Positions 11,541 through 63,384 of a DNA stretch of 64,000 nt are shown in pieces. A program made the translations under genes and the position numbers. Within the stretch, counting starts at the first letter, position 1. The number at the start of each line of letters is the position of its first letter. The stretch lies in assembly GCA_963744975.1 (NCBI GenBank), contig CAVUVR010000002.1, positions 2,785,069-2,849,068 on the forward strand, written 5' to 3'. The notes beneath the pieces are model-generated. The model ran no database searches and was not told the DNA's origin. It saw nothing but the letters and a program-made list of their open reading frames with translations. The DNA is from an uncultured Alphaproteobacteria bacterium. Its GTDB lineage: Bacteria > Pseudomonadota > Alphaproteobacteria > Rhizobiales > Xanthobacteraceae.

Positions 11541-14500
11541 TCAATGCGCCTCGTCCCAGTTATTCGCCGCCCGCGCATCGACCTGCAGCGGCACCGACAG
11601 CAGCACGGCGGGGAACGGCGCGTCCTGCATGGTGTGCTGCACCACCGGCAGCGTCGCCGCGACTTCGTCGTCGGGCACTTCGAAGATCAGCTCGTCATGC
11701 ACCTGCAGCAGCATCTGAGCCGAGAGTTTTTTCGCGGCCAGCGCATCCTCCATCCGGATCATGGCGCGGCGGATGATGTCGGCGGCGGTGCCTTGCAGCC
11801 GCGCATTGATGGCGGCGCGTTCGTTGAAGGAGCGCACCGAGGCGTTGCTGGCCTTGATGTCGGGGTAATGACACTTGCGGCCGAACAGCGTCTCGACATA
11901 GCCGTGCTTGCGGCAGAATTCGCGCGTTTCGTCCATATAGGCGCGGATGCCGGGGAAGCGTTCAAAGTATTTCTTGATGTAGGCGGAGGCTTCCTCGCGG
12001 GCGATGCCGAGCTGGTTGGCCAGGCCGAACGCCGAGATGCCGTAAATGATGCCGAAATTGATCGCCTTCGCCCGGCGGCGAACCTCGCCCGGCATGTCCT
12101 TGACCGGCACGCCAAACATTTCCGACGCGGTCATGGCGTGAATGTCGAGCTTGTCCTGGAACGCCTGCTTCAGCACGGGAATGTCGGCGATCTCCGCCAG
12201 CAGCCGCAACTCGATCTGCGAATAATCCGCCGACACCAGCTTGTGGCCGGGTGTCGCGATAAAGGCGCGGCGGATTTTGCGGCCGTCCTCGGTGCGCACC
12301 GGAATGTTCTGCAGGTTGGGCTCGTTCGACGACAGCCGCCCGGTGGTGGTCGCCGCCAGCGCGTAGGTGGTGTGGACGCGATGGGTCTGCGGATGCACAT
12401 AGGTCGGCAGCGCGTCGGTGTAGGTCGATTTCAGTTTCGACACCTGCCGCCATTCCAGGATCTTTTTCGGAAAGTCATGGCCCTGCTCGGCAAGCTCATC
12501 GAGCACCTGCGCGGTGGTGGACCATGCGCCGGTCTTGGTCTTGCTGCCGCCGGGCAGTCCCATCTTGCCGAAGATGATGTCGCCGATCTGCTTCGGGCTG
12601 CCGACATTGACCGGCTCGCCGGCAATCTCCTGGATCTCCGCTTCGACCCGTGCCGCGGTCTGCGCGAAATCGGCCGATAATCGCGACAGCACCTGGCGGT
12701 CGATCGAGATGCCGCGCCGCTCCATCCGCCCGAGCACGCCGACCAGCGGCCGCTCCAGCGTCTCATACACCGCGGTCATGCGCTCGGCGGCGAGCCGCGG
12801 TTTCAGCACCCGCCACAGCCTCAAGATCACGTCGGCATCCTCGGCGGAGTAGGCGGTGGCGCGGTCGATCGCGACCTGATCGAAACTGAGCTTGTTCTTG
12901 CCGCTGCCGGTGACCTCACTATTGCTCAGCACGGCGTGGCCGAGCCGGCTCTCGCTAAGCGCATCCAGCCCATGCGAGTTGCGCCCGGCATCGAGCGCAT
13001 AGGACATCAGCTCTACGTCGTCATGGTTGCGGATGGTGATGCCGTGCTGCGCCAGCATCACGGCCGAGAATTTGATGTCGAAGCCGATCTTGAGCAGCCC
13101 CGGCGATTCCAGCAGCGGTTTTAGCGCATCGAGCGCGTCCGATGCCTTGATCTGGTCCGGCGCGAGGCCGGCGGCGAACAATCCTGCACCATCACCGGAC
13201 TGCTTGTGGCTGAGCGGGATATAGCAGGCGTCGTTGGGCCCGAGCGCCAGCGCGATGCCGCACATCTCCGCCTGCATCGGATCGATCGAGGTCGCCTTGG
13301 CGTCGATGGCGACGTGGCCTGTGTCGAGGATCCGCGCGATCCAGGCGTTGAGGTCGGCGATCGTGCGAACGGTCTGGTATTTGTTGCGATCGATTTTGGT
13401 GTGGCGCGCGGCTTCCGTCCGCGCTGCCGCAAGCGCTTGCGGTGTCAGCGCGATCGCGCCGCGGTCCGCTTTCGCCGGAGCTTGCGGCCGCTTCTGGTCA
13501 CCAAGGGGAAGCTCGCCGACGCGGGATGAAAAAAGATTGGTGCCCTTGGCCGCATCATCGGGTTCACCCCCCAGCGACGCCGTCGACGGTGAATCCGGCG
13601 GCATTCCCTTCGAGGCAAAGGGACTCTTCAAATCCGTCGCGGCGTCGATGCCCGACGGATCGATCTCGCCATATTCGGCGACGCGCCGGGTCAGCGTGGA
13701 AAATTCCATTGCCTTCAAGAAGGCAATCAGTTTGCGGGCATCGGGTTCATGTACCGCGAGTTCATCGAGTGGCACGTCGAGTGCAACCTTGTCGTCGAGC
13801 AAAACAAGTTGTCGTGATGTCAGGGCTAGTTGCTTATTTTCCACTATTTTGGCGACCGTTCCTCCGATCACTCGCGACAAATTGCGAGCCCGCAGTATGA
13901 GTGTGCAAAACTCATTTCCTGCGCTCGCTAGTCTTTCGATCGTTTCGGTATCGGCGGTTGGGTTTCCCTTCTTGTCCCTGGGTAGAGCCGTCTCACCAAA
14001 TTTTGTTTCCAGTACTTTTCCAACCTGCGCAGCTGAACTCGGCTTTATCGGCTCGCCAGCAATCTTAGTGATCTGCTTTTCGAGCGCGGACAGCTTGGCC
14101 TTCAATTCTTCTTCGATCTTCTCAGGATGATCTTCTGCAGAAAGAATTCGATCAAGCGATCCCAATTCAGCGATTAATGTGCTTGCAGCCTTCGGGCCCA
14201 CGCCTGGAACGCCCGGGACGTTATCGACAGAATCTCCGATCAGCGCCTGGACCTCGACCACCTTCTCCGGCGGCACGCCGAATTTTTCGATCACCTCGGC
14301 AATGCCGAGCCGGCGATCCTTCATGGTGTCGTACATGGTGACGCAGTCGGTCACCAGCTGCATCAGGTCCTTGTCCGAGGAGACGATGGTGGCGCTGGCG
14401 CCGCGCTCACAGGCGATCCGCACATAGGTCGCGATCAGGTCGTCGGCCTCGAAACCGGCCTGCTCCAGGCACGGCAGGTCGAACGCGCGCACCGCCTCGC

Positions 14501-14876
14501 GGATCAGCGGAAATTGCGGGATCAGGTCGTCGGGGGCGGGCGGCCGGTGCGCCTTGTAGGCGGGATAGAGCTTGTTGCGGAAGGTGACTTCGGACTTGTC
14601 GAAGATGATGGCGAGATGGGTCGGCCGGTTATCCTCCGGCATGTCGCGCAGCAGCTTCCACAACATGTTGCAGAAGCCGAGCACGGCATTGACCTGCAGC
14701 CCGTCGGACTTGCGGTTGAGCGGCGGCAGCGCGTGATAGGCGCGGAAAATATAGGAGGACCCGTCGACCAGGAAGATGTGGTCGCCCTTGCCCGGGGCTT
14801 TGACGGCAACGGGCTTTGCGGCGGCGGATTTGGCGGCGGCGGGTTCCGCAGCGGGTTTTTGCGAGGATTTCGGCAT
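11541..14876 (-). CDS. polA: DNA polymerase I with an internal thumb-like insertion
   Basis: LVDGSSYIFRAYH 5'-nuclease, 3'-5' exonuclease region, TGRLSS.EPNLQN, DYSQIELR, AKAINFGIIYG and QVHDEL motifs; 1111 aa, longer than usual. Confidence 0.98.
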   Translation of the reverse strand: MPKSSQKPAAEPAAAKSAAAKPVAVKAPGKGDHIFLVDGSSYIFRAYHALPPLNRKSDGLQVNAVLGFCNMLWKLLRDMPEDNRPTHLAIIFDKSEVTFRNKLYPAYKAHRPPAPDDLIPQFPLIREAVRAFDLPCLEQAGFEADDLIATYVRIACERGASATIVSSDKDLMQLVTDCVTMYDTMKDRRLGIAEVIEKFGVPPEKVVEVQALIGDSVDNVPGVPGVGPKAASTLIAELGSLDRILSAEDHPEKIEEELKAKLSALEKQITKIAGEPIKPSSAAQVGKVLETKFGETALPRDKKGNPTADTETIERLASAGNEFCTLILRARNLSRVIGGTVAKIVENKQLALTSRQLVLLDDKVALDVPLDELAVHEPDARKLIAFLKAMEFSTLTRRVAEYGEIDPSGIDAATDLKSPFASKGMPPDSPSTASLGGEPDDAAKGTNLFSSRVGELPLGDQKRPQAPAKADRGAIALTPQALAAARTEAARHTKIDRNKYQTVRTIADLNAWIARILDTGHVAIDAKATSIDPMQAEMCGIALALGPNDACYIPLSHKQSGDGAGLFAAGLAPDQIKASDALDALKPLLESPGLLKIGFDIKFSAVMLAQHGITIRNHDDVELMSYALDAGRNSHGLDALSESRLGHAVLSNSEVTGSGKNKLSFDQVAIDRATAYSAEDADVILRLWRVLKPRLAAERMTAVYETLERPLVGVLGRMERRGISIDRQVLSRLSADFAQTAARVEAEIQEIAGEPVNVGSPKQIGDIIFGKMGLPGGSKTKTGAWSTTAQVLDELAEQGHDFPKKILEWRQVSKLKSTYTDALPTYVHPQTHRVHTTYALAATTTGRLSSNEPNLQNIPVRTEDGRKIRRAFIATPGHKLVSADYSQIELRLLAEIADIPVLKQAFQDKLDIHAMTASEMFGVPVKDMPGEVRRRAKAINFGIIYGISAFGLANQLGIAREEASAYIKKYFERFPGIRAYMDETREFCRKHGYVETLFGRKCHYPDIKASNASVRSFNERAAINARLQGTAADIIRRAMIRMEDALAAKKLSAQMLLQVHDELIFEVPDDEVAATLPVVQHTMQDAPFPAVLLSVPLQVDARAANNWDEAH

Positions 14877-14956
14877 GGCCGCAATTTAAGGATTTTTGCG
14901 CTGAATGACAGTCTATGCAGTGCGAAAAGATGTCGTCGTCCCGGCGAAAACTCGGT

Positions 14957-15089
14957 GTCGTCCCGGCGAAGGCCGGGACCCATACTCCGTGTCGCCGATG
15001 TTCGGGTTGGCGTCAGTCGCCTTGTTGAACGGCCTCACTGCAATCATGACCGCCAGGGGTTATGGGTCCCGGCCTTCGCCGGGACGACG
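14957..15089. repeat. CGTC-type REP doublet, family B, gene-free (76-nt spacer)
   Basis: GTCGTCCCGGCGAAGGCCGGGACCCATA ... TATGGGTCCCGGCCTTCGCCGGGACGAC. Confidence 0.88.
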
Positions 15090-15164
15090 GAGAGAGTGTG
15101 GATGCGCATCGCTCCTTCCTTTCGGCCAAGCGTCATCGCTGCCCGCAAATGCCTTCGCGTGAAT

Positions 15165-15553
15165 GGGAGGTTCAGGGGACCTCGCTCTCTCCGATAAGAG
15201 AGGGAGGCGGAACGCCGAAAGGCGCACCTTGGTAACGGCCGCGGCTTGATTTCCGGATTGCCGAAAATCAGAGGCACACGGCAACGCCTTTCAGCGTCCC
15301 TGCCGCGGCGACTTCTTCGACCCTGGGACCGGTTCTTCCGAGCGCGGGCGCGAGCAAGCTCGCCATCCAGGCAGGTTTCCCCACCCTTCACCCGTCTCGT
15401 CCAGCCATTGAAGGCAGCGCCCCGTAGTGGGCACGGACGGTTACCCTGGGCCCCCCGGGTGCGCAGAGGGACGTCCCCTCCACGCCCGCAGGCGCCGCAT
15501 CCCGCCCCGCGCTACAAGCGTCCCGGCAACGCCCCTTTAACAGGGACGGGATG
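15165..15553 (-). ncRNA. Candidate large structured non-coding RNA or RNA-based repeat element, family not recognised
   Basis: At least 8 predicted helices, G.U pairs that work only on the minus strand, two GAAA loops, a G(CUUG)C loop and a 6-bp pseudoknot. The promoter ends exactly at the 5' stem. The 3' end is approximate. Confidence 0.65.
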
Positions 15554-15559
15554 CCTAGG

Positions 15560-15587
15560 AATTTAGCTTAGTAGGAAGATATGTCAA
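15560..15587 (-). promoter_or_regulatory. Sigma70-type promoter TTGACA-N16-TAAATT
   Basis: Perfect -35 and a TAnnnT -10; predicted start ~15553. Confidence 0.65.
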
Positions 15588-15627
15588 GCGGGAGAAACAT
15601 TAAATTTTTGCGGCCGAAACAAGGCCT

Positions 15628-15767
15628 CGTGTCCCGGGCGCGGTGCGGCATTCTTCATGCCGCTCCGCAGAACCGGGACCCCGGTTTCTTCAGGCGCAAG
15701 CAAACCGGGACCCCGGCTCTGCAGCGCACCGCTTCGCGAAGAGCTACGCGCTGCGCTGCGTCCGGGG
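15628..15767. repeat. REP-like element, family A
   Basis: Homologous to 3421-3558. Confidence 0.85.
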
Positions 15768-15788
15768 AACGATGACTGTGGATGGCAA

Positions 15789-15947
15789 TCAGCCCTTGGC
15801 CTTGCCCTTGGCGCGGTCCAGCGCCTCCTCGGCGGTTCCGCCCTTTGCGGAGCCGCTCTTGCCGTTCTCCGTCACGGTCGCGTTGGTCTCGGACGATCCG
15901 CTCCGCTTCTCGACGGTCACGGTTTTCTCTTCTTTCGTTACGCTCAT
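15789..15947 (-). CDS. Small 52-aa hydrophilic hypothetical protein
   Basis: Hand translation MSVTKEEKTVTVEKRSGSSETNATVTENGKSGSAKGGTAEEALDRAKGKAKG; GC3-rich host-like codons; below the ORF-track cutoff. Confidence 0.55.
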   Translation of the reverse strand: MSVTKEEKTVTVEKRSGSSETNATVTENGKSGSAKGGTAEEALDRAKGKAKG

Positions 15948-27319: not shown

Positions 27320-27415
27320 GGGAGATTGGCGGTGGACGAGCCACTCGCCAACCGGGTCAGGTCCGGAAGGAAGCAGCCCTAACGAGGTCCGGATCGGGTC
27401 GCTCGTCAGTCTCCT
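27320..27415 (+). ncRNA. ffs: SRP 4.5S RNA
   Basis: Conserved domain IV TCAGGTCCGGAAGGAAGCAGC, terminal GGAG/CTCC pairing, usual position upstream of dnaX. Confidence 0.95.
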
Positions 27416-27522
27416 ACCTGTTTTTTTCGGGCGAATCGCGCAAGACGGACACCGGTTTTGCGCTCGATTCCCTTCAAGTTCCGCAAGCCGGCTTCGAGAG
27501 ACAATCATTTGCGGATCGATCG

Positions 27523-61589: not shown

Positions 61590-63384
61590 TCAAATCCCCG
61601 TCACCGACGCCCACATCCGCGCCAGCTTGCGCTTGAACTTCGCCATCCGCGTCTCCGGCACGACGTCTTCCTCATCCTCCGGCAAGCGCAGTCCGACGAC
61701 GTTCACCCGCCCGCCGCCGATGCTGCGCGCGACCAGAACGATGGAATCGAGCGCAAGCTCCGCGCCTTCCTTCGGCGCGCGATCGAGATGAATGTCGAAG
61801 TAATCCGCCAGCGTCAGTTTTGCCTGCTCTTCATCCACCGCTACGCCGTAAACTTCCGCAAGCTCGCCAAGCGTGTGCTCGCCGGATACCGTGAAATCGC
61901 CGAGCAGATGCGGATCGGGCGCCGTGCTCGGCGCCATGTCGACAAAGAAGCGGTCGAGCGCCTCGGCTTTTTCCGGCGGCGCCAGCAGATAGATGTAATC
62001 GCCGGCCGCGACCGGCTCGGCCTCGGCCGGCGACAAGATCTTCTCGTCGCGAATGACCAGCGTCGGCTTCGACCATGACGGAATCAGGCCGCGGCGCAGG
62101 TACAGGCTCTTGGAGCGGACGGAATAGCCGACCAGTTGCTGCTCGAGCTGGCCCGGCAGATCCAGTTCGATCCGCCGCGGCCCGCGATCGGAGCGCGGCA
62201 GTGCGACGTGGAGACGACGGGCCGCGGCGGCCAGCGTCCAGCCCTGCAGCAGCAGCGAGATGATGACGACGACGAAGGCAACGTCGAAATACAAGATAGG
62301 CCTTCGACAACCCGACCAGCATCGGGATCGACGCCAGGAAGATCGCCACCGCGCCGCGCAGGCCGGTCCAGGCGATAAACGTCTTCTCGCGCCAGTTGAA
62401 CTTGAACGGCGCCAGACAGAGAAACACCGCGATCGGCCGCGCCACCAGCATCAGCACGAAGGCGACCACGACCGCCGAACCGATGCTGCCGACCAGCCGC
62501 TGCGGCGATACCAGGAGGCCCAGCAGCACGAACATCACGATCTGCGCCAGCCAGGTCGCGGCGTCGAGAAAGGTCACCACCGAATTATGCGCGCGGGTCG
62601 GCCGGTTGCCGATGATGATGCCGGCGAGGTACACCGCGAGAAACCCCGAGCCGTGCACGATCTGCGCGCCGCCGAAAATCACCAACGCGGCGGTGGTGAC
62701 GAACGGCGCGTGCAGCCCCTGCGGCAGCGCGACGCGGTTCAACCCCAGCACCACCAGCCGCCCGCCGATCACGCCGACGATGGTGCCAAGCACGGCCTCG
62801 CGGACCAATTCCAGCACCACATGCGCGGCCGAGCTATCGCCGATCGAAATCAGTTCCACCAGCATCAAGGTGAGAAACACCGCAAACGGATCGTTGGTGC
62901 CGGACTCCGCCTCCAGCGTTGCGCCGACGCGGGGACGCAAGCGCAAGCCCTGCGCATGCACCAGCAAGAACACCGCCGCGGCATCGGTCGATGCCACCAC
63001 GGCGCCGACCAGCAGCGCCTCGGTCCAGTTCAGGTCGAGTGCGATCTTGGCGATGGGGGCGGTAATCAGCGCCGTCAGCAGCACGCCGACGGTGGCCAGC
63101 ACCATCGACGGCGCCAGCACCGCGCGGATGCTTTGGAAGCGCGTCTTTAAGCCGCCGTCGAACAGGATCAGCGCCAGCGCCACCGATCCCACAAGATAGG
63201 TGGTGCGGACATCGTCGAACCGGATCTGGCCGGGGCCGGAATCGCCGGCAAACATGCCGATCAACAGAAACACCAGCAGCAGCGGCGCGCCGAAGCGCAG
63301 CGCCAGCAGGCTCGACAGGATGCCGGCCATCACCAGAACTGCGCCGAGAAGAATGGCTATGCTGACCGAATCGAGAGAAGCCAT
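61590..63384 (-). CDS. cvrA: K+/H+ antiporter NhaP2/CvrA, split by a +1 frameshift at ~62294
   Basis: STDAAAVF, ESGTNDP, W.GLRGAVAIFLA; the C-terminal half continues in the 61590-62294 frame (YFDVAF...QGWT). Confidence 0.9.

Follow-up and report, generated by a model that had tools for sequence, protein, structure and literature searches.

A predicted promoter-bearing structured RNA family of Rhizobiales, found in many copies and associated with a small cysteine- and arginine-rich protein

The 64,000-nt stretch of uncultured alphaproteobacterial DNA analyzed here (the window) carries on its minus strand, between two repeats upstream of polA, a 486 bp cassette (15609-15124) that consists of a promoter and a predicted structured RNA. 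We read this element as a solo copy of an undescribed family of self-contained RNA genes, whose RNA would partner a small protein, named CRR here, and which behaves as an exchangeable cassette; the probability that we assign to this reading is roughly 0.6. Comparative analysis of the copies established the predicted family as a real, conserved, promoter-bearing structured RNA that is absent from Rfam and exclusively associated with the undescribed CRR. A preliminary description, made from the letters of the window, had proposed a novel large non-coding RNA, possibly the RNA of a non-autonomous mobile element. This proposal was supported: BLASTN and covariance model (CM) searches revealed a dispersed multicopy family, covariation within it was very strong, and Rfam gave no match.

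Results

Promoter and limits of the cassette

On the minus strand, on which both the cassette and its RNA are read, the order of elements is AAAAATTTAATGTTTCTCCCGC, TTGACA (15587-15582), 16 nt, TAAATT (15565-15560), CCTAGG and CAUCCCGUCCC. The cassette edges are common to all full-length (type I) copies. At its 5' edge lies an A/T-rich tract, AAAAATTTAATGTTTCT (15593-15609, minus strand), where homology among the genomic copies begins; the tract looks like an UP element, and similar A/T tracts lie 5' of the -35 hexamer in other genera. Within the -35 hexamer TTGACA (15582-15587, minus strand), TTGA was invariant and CA at least 90% conserved among 20 copies, and the hexamer is kept in most genera. 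In the -10 hexamer TAAATT (15560-15565, minus strand), located 16 nt past the -35, the T, the A and the final T were conserved across copies. Unlike the hexamers, the spacer between them varied freely in the 20 copies. A promoter scan of 14800-15800 returned a single sigma-70-like site with 10 of 12 positions matched (shuffle expectation 0.1), and this is the promoter, TTGACA-N16-TAAATT at 15587-15560, that had been picked out before.

The start at ~15553 predicted from that promoter also held. CAUCCC is the start of the conserved block in 54 homologues from many genera and lies 6-7 nt past a TAnnnT hexamer. Most copies across genera have TTGACA-N16/17-TAnnnT, ending 6-7 nt 5' of CAUCCC, and a second promoter class has cTTATCC-N18-TATnnT. 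A conserved promoter that keeps a constant distance to the 5' end of the RNA supports a fixed transcription start. From there the RNA is predicted to run to ~15124, a length of about 430 nt in a family that ranges from ~430 to 480 nt. The earlier estimate of ~390 nt with an end at 15165 was too short, since the conserved unit extends to ~15124. Homology ends at this position in all copies, solo or protein-linked; the RNA 5' end is constant from the inferred start, and the sequence beyond the cassette 3' edge varies. No U-tract follows the last hairpin at the 3' end of the cassette, and the promoter/terminator scan predicted no terminator there.

TTCCTA/TAGGAA half-sites recur around both promoter hexamers in many homologues (e.g. 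relatives L151, L149 and L134, and 15559-15552 in the window). They are often palindromic (AGGAA-N4-TTCCT), flanking the -35 hexamer and overlapping the -10/+1 region, and may form a candidate operator for some regulator, perhaps CRR itself.

Fold and covariation of the RNA

Comparative folding showed a predicted P1-capped 5' domain, a central multi-helix junction, a 3' domain whose cap varies and, at the end, two or three hairpins, and in the alignments the family keeps more than 100 predicted base pairs by compensatory change. The 5' domain (15398-15553, minus strand) comprises P1 with its nested hairpin, a second bulged stem-loop and a CGUCC/GGACG three-way element. P1 is the 11-bp stem CAUCCCGUCCC/GGGGCGGGAUG (15553-15543 with 15507-15497) of the preliminary description and caps the nested hairpin; it corresponds to helix 1 of the alignment, in which 6 of 7 modelled pairs had double changes. 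The GUGCCC/GGGCGC stem inside CGUCC/GGACG, also proposed from the single copy, was recovered as helices 7 and 8 of the alignment of 54 sequences. A covariance model of the first 158 nt of the RNA, R1, scored the 5' domain of the window at 157.7 bits (E 6e-33). For the 54 sequences CM-aligned to this model, 97.0% of cells in the 5' domain form standard pairs, compared with 83.0% for shuffled columns (0 of 500 shuffles attained the observed value) and ~50% for slid controls, and changes occurred on both sides in 37 of 43 pairs. The alignment was fitted to R1, and MAFFT-only alignments gave the same helices. G.U pairs were frequent in the 54-sequence alignment and fit the promoter strand only.

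The central junction (15325-15446, minus strand) is closed by a long-range helix of 15446-15439 (GGGUAACC) with 15330-15325 (GGUCCC). It contains a GAAA-capped hairpin at 15386-15369, a further hairpin at 15363-15350 and an invariant CGGAAG (15340-15335). The two hairpins had been described as GGGUGGG-GAAA-CCUGCCU and GCGAG-CUUG-CUCGC, in good agreement with the compensatory changes of their stems between subfamilies. The pair A15441-U15328 of the closing helix was tabulated over 86 distinct copies with a regex, independently of any alignment, as A-U 42, U-A 17, G-C 17, C-G 3, G.U/U.G 5 and mismatch 2; the corresponding alignment pair, 168-293, agrees. The pair next to it was C-G in 69 and U-A in 15 of these copies. 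Pairs ~110 nt apart hence covary, and one long-range pair takes all four Watson-Crick types.

The 3' domain (15209-15310, minus strand) is built on a long helix of ~17 bp, 15300-15284 with 15225-15209, which encloses the helix GCCGUGUGC/GCCGCGGC and a hairpin at 15270-15247 with the loop CAAU. The long helix was predicted by RNAalifold on 20 and on 38 sequences, and the minimum free energy (MFE) fold of the window copy agrees. Its outer pairs covary (344-458: AU 30, GU 6; 345-457: GC 17, AU 13, GU 8). In this region the single-copy fold had to be revised. Two local GAAA/UUUC hairpins, which do not account for the covariation of these outer pairs, are replaced by the covarying long helix. The wider alignment did not support the proposed closing helix GCCGCGGC/GCCGCGGC, which has A.C mismatches in 9 of 20 copies, or a CGGCAA/UUGCCG pseudoknot, whose complementarity is lost in other genera, where the hairpin is lengthened to CCGG/CCGG and capped by a tetraloop. 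The UGAUUU/AAAUCA hairpin and the hairpin at 15207-15180 were retained, both being part of the 20-sequence RNAalifold consensus. The latter, CCUCCCUCUCU-UAUC-GGAGAGAGCGAGG (15180-15207, minus strand), has a stem that covaries between subfamilies (pair 430-439: UA 7, CG 7). Two terminal hairpins, ACGCGAAGGCAUUUGCG(GG) and GGGCAGCG-AUGA-CGCUUGGCC (15124-15161, minus strand; RNAalifold pairs 470-485 and 486-505), form the cassette 3' edge.

The 391 nt delimited at first had a folding energy of -211 kcal/mol and an MFE z of -3.35 on the minus strand vs -1.64 on the plus strand, which, together with the many G.U pairs, bears out the strand asymmetry claimed earlier. Indels of 1, 2 and 4 nt between copies rule out a conserved reading frame, as anticipated from the lack of a credible open reading frame (ORF) in the window copy. 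The element thus combines compensatory changes well above controls, strand-specific G.U pairs and a promoter of its own, as a structured RNA would.

Comparison with known RNA families

A search of Rfam 15 over positions 14800-15900 at E ≤ 10 yielded only noise inside 15124-15553 (IRES_FGF1, E 7.7; BTH_s19, E 9) and nothing at gathering score, and a search of 13 diverged relatives at E ≤ 0.01 found nothing on the element. The Rfam test covers RNase P, transfer-messenger RNA (tmRNA), signal recognition particle (SRP) RNA, 6S RNA, group I and II introns, HEARO, OLE, GOLLD, ROOL, raiA, Rhizobiales-2 and Bradyrhizobium small RNAs. ARAGORN found no tRNA or tmRNA at the element. These results agree with the lack of RNase P, tmRNA, SRP and group II intron hallmarks noted in the preliminary description. 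Of the motifs previously published from this order, Rhizobiales-1 is a ~60-nt hairpin repeat and Rhizobiales-2 is RF01723, with no match to the element (Weinberg et al. 2010, PMC2864571). The RNA family has no description in Rfam 15 or in Weinberg et al. (2010); the literature was covered in part, and an earlier description may exist elsewhere. The main text of later motif surveys from the Breaker laboratory makes no mention of these taxa, and keyword searches of the literature were equally negative.

Copies in this genome and distribution in others

The genome of the window (5.95 Mb, 2 contigs, 96.7% complete) contains 22 copies of the cassette, as found by BLASTN and nhmmer. Ten of them are full-length type I copies like that in the window and are 72-96% identical to one another. 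The other ~12 belong to a second type, type II, which retains the core but differs from type I in its promoter, its 5' module and its 3' end, has one hairpin more and is shortened in the 3' domain. Type II copies are located at C2:37700-38204, C2:969222-969650, C2:4292145-4292640 and about nine more sites. They have the promoter cTTATCC-N18-TATnnT, a diverged P1 and the conserved end GGCTGTTTGAAATT; their first promoter box resembles a DnaA box, TTATCCAC, and CRR accompanies none of them. At 61650-61756 of the window (minus strand), the 5'-domain model gave a weak match (14.1 bits, E 0.12) that nhmmer does not confirm and that is probably due to chance.

An exact 20-mer from the 3' domain was found in 103 stretches among the genomes of 185,579 species. 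Of these stretches, 76 were confirmed as copies by nhmmer and belong to Afipia species (one divergent copy each), a metagenome-assembled genome (MAG) labelled Bradyrhizobium and several MAGs of uncultured alphaproteobacteria that hold many copies; the remaining stretches were chance matches in unrelated phyla. Of 150 further genomes in the same GTDB family, R1 matched 81, in 39 of 62 genera and with E down to 1e-31, and the positive genomes usually had many copies, up to at least 19 per genome. The genus of the window was mostly negative, with the RNA in 2 of 24 relatives. Elsewhere in the order, matches were weaker and confined to 6 genomes of five further families; two of these genomes had 9-15 copies. 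Model matches of this kind showed a multicopy RNA family that extends across many genera of one Rhizobiales family and into a few neighbouring families. No cassette match was found on plasmids, and three pattern matches in viral contigs were not confirmed by CM or hidden Markov model; a phage or plasmid origin was therefore rejected.

The linked protein CRR

In protein-linked copies, a Shine-Dalgarno (SD) sequence and an ATG after the last hairpin open an ORF of 104-250 aa with four invariant cysteines. The product, CRR, is a Cys4/Arg-rich protein of ~105 aa with the invariant pattern C-x4-C-R-R-x-R-x-C-x6-C. A CRR ORF follows the RNA in 5 of the 10 type I copies of this genome, in 12 of 12 Afipia-type copies (those of Afipia species and of two MAGs with no label beyond Pseudomonadota) and, among the best matches from other genera, in about half. 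Each CRR-carrying genome has 1-5 CRR-linked copies, and CRR starts 470-520 nt past the RNA 5' end on the same strand wherever coordinates were listed. Among the 150 family genomes, the RNA was present in 52 of 52 CRR-positive genomes and CRR was present in 0 of 69 RNA-negative ones, a nesting that is suggestive and does not amount to statistical proof.

CRR had no match in Pfam, NCBIfam, PHROGs or PADLOC, and neither homology nor fold (no PDB neighbour) pointed to a function. A search of 1.84 billion representatives with the CRR profile returned 505 clusters, nearly all of 100-130 aa, whose names, where found, were 'hypothetical protein' or which were unnamed. The arginine-rich CRRxRxC segment is a plausible candidate for a nucleic-acid-binding site.

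The RNA-CRR module of Afipia is convergent to rpoH-rluD, and in this genome copy C1:1155316-1155811 shares that neighbour, which makes the locus look ancestral. At C2:1797400-1800360, a tandem 2-kb duplication has the order RNA, CRR, nucleotidyltransferase-like gene, small helical-protein gene, RNA, CRR; its two RNAs are 100% identical, and the intervening gene pair is MNT/HEPN-like by eye. In the window, the position equivalent to the start of CRR in protein-linked copies is occupied by an SD-like GGAAGGAG, an ATG at 15109 and a 21-codon frame (15044-15119, minus strand) that enters the REP-like repeat. This frame is probably not a gene, and a translated search with the CRR profile found no trace of CRR at the window copy.

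Differences between sites and species

Two loci of this genome have RNAs that are 96% identical and CRR proteins that are only 43% identical, and the RNA subfamilies are mosaic in the 20-copy alignment. Sister species differ in the subfamily, or even the type, that they have at orthologous intergenic sites, the elements being 56-87% and the flanks 84-93% identical, and at one site the element is present in a sister species and absent from this genome. Whole spacers between conserved convergent genes were replaced in relative L074 vs C2:37544-38432 and in L054/L104 vs C2:968930-969910, with a type I RNA in one species and a type II RNA plus repetitive extragenic palindromic (REP) elements in the other.

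The edges of the cassette, AAAAATTTAATG... and ...GATGACGCTTGSC, are not inverted repeats, and no terminal inverted repeats were found. Target-site duplications were likewise absent, there being no direct repeat in the flanks of 10 copies. PF07282 (TnpB-type domain) was absent from the 96.7%-complete genome and was detected in control genomes, and RVT_1 (reverse transcriptase) had no match anywhere in the genome.

In other genomes, solo type I copies were co-oriented with the next gene in 17 cases and convergent in 21 (6 and 10, respectively, for type II); between tandem genes, solo type I copies were co-directional in 15 cases vs 2. With 17 co-oriented and 21 convergent copies, the solo elements do not look like promoter donors, and a role as a mobile promoter donor was rejected.

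Genes and repeats around the window copy

The element in the window is of the solo kind and lies tightly between two REP-like repeats. Three unrelated repeats, A, the cassette and C, are stacked in the spacer upstream of polA. Repeat A (15627-15771, minus strand; ~145 nt) abuts the cassette upstream and has 172 near-full copies in the genome; it also lies directly 5' of two other RNA copies. Repeat C (14957-15089) is a palindromic REP-type doublet between the RNA and polA, with 34 near-full copies and many single arms; its arms are CGTCGTCCCGGCGAAGGCCGGGAC, it comes right after 5 of the 10 full-length RNA copies, and it looks like the CGTC-type REP class.

The next gene downstream is polA (11541-14876, minus strand), encoding DNA polymerase I (Pfam DNA_pol_A, 1.6e-167, plus 5'-3' and 3'-5' exonuclease domains). 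Its longest frame is 1111 aa with the 5'-nuclease domain from residue 34, and the length called from third-codon-position GC content (GC3) is 1087 aa; translation probably begins downstream of 14876. The earlier location of the RNA upstream of polA is correct as far as the order of genes goes, but the position is incidental in a multicopy family: other copies adjoin mfd, an aldehyde dehydrogenase gene, pepN, cysQ-like genes and others, and a specific polA link was rejected. The window copy is predicted to be transcribed towards polA, with the REP palindrome between, and on this evidence it has no specific link to that gene. The sole Rfam match at gathering score in the window is a bacterial small SRP RNA (RF00169, 54.4 bits) at 27321-27417 on the plus strand.

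Discussion

In the reading that we prefer, the RNA would be a functional partner of CRR, either as a binding platform or within a ribonucleoprotein (RNP). A protein-linked copy would express RNA and CRR from one promoter, and solo copies such as that in the window would be additional RNA genes supplying more RNA. Recombination or gene conversion would exchange the cassette of promoter and RNA between intergenic sites or copy it from one to another, and no transposase or reverse transcriptase would be involved. Several observations weigh against this reading. The CRR profile detected no CRR in 29 RNA-positive genomes among the 150 of the family, where the RNA may work without CRR or the profile may be too weak. 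The family genomes are related and do not represent independent samples. The AlphaFold model of CRR is helical and moderately confident (pLDDT 76.6), with no PDB neighbour. Finally, no precise empty site was recovered; from one sister species to another the intergenic regions are replaced in full.

The main rival is a selfish mobile element, in which CRR copies would be autonomous, solo RNAs would be mobilised in trans and the structure would be kept for mobility. Such an element would fit copy numbers between 0 and more than 19 per genome, a distribution that is patchy even in the window's own genus (2 of 24), differences between sister species in presence at one site and in type at shared sites, and the location of copies in intergenic regions, often between convergent genes. 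The proportion of 1-5 linked to many solo copies is also typical of autonomous/non-autonomous pairs. However, the shared edges carry neither terminal inverted repeats nor target-site duplications, CRR with its ~105 aa has no transposase, HUH or recombinase signature, and the genome lacks reverse transcriptase and TnpB domain. Copies within the genome differ by 10-28%, so that there was no recent burst, and the single Afipia copy beside rpoH looks vertically inherited. We regard this explanation as possible, if rather doubtful.

Most copies are solo, yet keep both promoter and base pairing, which is difficult to reconcile with a long cis-acting 5' leader of CRR (riboswitch-like or autoregulatory) that left the solo copies as relics. 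The solo copies have no CRR remnants, share their sharp 3' edge with linked copies and are convergent to the next gene (21) as frequently as they are co-oriented with it (17). The 3' end of type II copies is distinct from that of type I, and ~430 nt in three domains is far above known leader size. Only the CRR-linked minority lies consistently upstream of a gene and co-oriented with it. Within that minority a leader would fit the arrangement, given that the RNA precedes every CRR gene examined, that no terminator separates the two and that the SD follows the last hairpin. Overall, we consider it improbable that the family consists of such leaders.

An intergenic repeat acting at the DNA level, whether REP, miniature inverted-repeat transposable element (MITE) or similar to a bacterial interspersed mosaic element, with a functionless RNA structure, would account for dispersed intergenic copies embedded among true REP-type repeats. 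An identity as MITE or REP was rejected on end anatomy, the cassette being asymmetric, 486 bp long and without terminal inverted repeats vs REP units that are palindromic, 20-40 bp long and arranged singly or in inverted doublets; the adjoining repeats A and C are REP-type and belong to separate families. The consensus promoter at a fixed distance from the conserved block, G.U pairs that work on one strand, the weaker z of the opposite strand and covariation between pairs ~110 nt apart effectively exclude this explanation as well. Least probable of all, and also effectively excluded, is an RNA that serves as guide or scaffold in an IS200/IS605-type system (HEARO-like, or omega RNA of TnpB/IscB) or that belongs to a retroelement as its non-coding RNA: the RNA is large, structured and multicopy, with some copies beside an ORF as in HEARO, but Rfam models of HEARO, group II introns and retron-type RNAs were unmatched, both candidates were rejected on the absence of PF07282 and RVT_1 from the genome, the constant 5' end leaves no place for a 5' guide, and the ORFs downstream of copies encode either the 105-aa Cys4 protein or unrelated housekeeping functions, and no IscB/TnpB nuclease.

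Few bacterial RNAs are known that are large, intricately folded and paired with a dedicated protein. Those found to date, RNase P, tmRNA, OLE, HEARO/omega RNA, ROOL and GOLLD, have each led to a line of biochemical work. The present family has marks of function in its conserved promoter, its more than 100 compensated base pairs, its long-range helices and its occurrence in dozens of genera, and the exclusive link to the nameless CRR family of 505 clusters provides a direct experimental handle. Cassette-like exchange without a known mobility enzyme poses a mechanistic question and may account for part of the fast intergenic turnover in soil Rhizobiales. Dozens of unannotated and, as predicted, strong promoters per genome are also relevant to annotation and to the reading of transcriptomes in carriers. 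It is unlikely, although worth stating, that the family represents a new RNA-centred element that copies or converts itself into intergenic sites via its own structured RNA or DNA and CRR, without a transposase, recombinase or reverse transcriptase of known type, or a new abundant Rhizobiales RNP.

Among known systems, REP/REPIN, RIME and Rhizobiales-1 resemble the cassette as dispersed alphaproteobacterial intergenic repeats whose copy number differs between relatives, and the cassette sits among repeats of this kind. They are 30-140-bp palindromic hairpins without promoters, whereas the cassette is 486 bp long, asymmetric and promoter-bearing. ORF-less group II introns and other structured mobile RNAs are likewise multicopy and keep their structure by compensatory change; unlike group II introns, the present RNA has no domain V/VI signature, no Rfam match and no reverse transcriptase in the genome, and it has its own promoter instead of lying inside a host transcript. 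The lambda N-nut system and the phage Mu Com-mom leader, in which small zinc or arginine-rich proteins bind long structured 5' leaders, share with protein-linked copies a structured RNA directly 5' of a co-transcribed gene and a small basic, Cys/Arg-rich protein that could bind it. In contrast to these, most cassette copies lack a partner gene, the RNA is 5-10 times larger, and neither RNA nor protein is homologous.

The closest likeness in organization is to the HEARO/IscB omega RNA (RF02033), which is also large (200-400 nt), intricately folded and multicopy, with many stand-alone copies and others upstream of an ORF. The differences are that no Rfam model matches here, that the linked ORF is a Cys4/Arg-rich one of ~105 aa and not an HNH/RuvC nuclease, that the cassette brings a sigma-70 promoter of its own and an unvarying RNA 5' end with no guide segment there, and that it lacks IS200/IS605 ends in a genome without a TnpB-type domain. 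OLE, GOLLD, ROOL and raiA have no sequence or model similarity to the cassette RNA, which is restricted to Rhizobiales and not tied to prophages; they occur as one copy per genome vs up to dozens here, and the protein linked to the cassette is a different, undescribed one. The cassette RNA nevertheless resembles these RNAs in size class, in abundant covariation and in a build of several domains with GNRA-capped hairpins and long-range helices, and OLE, in addition, works with dedicated small proteins.

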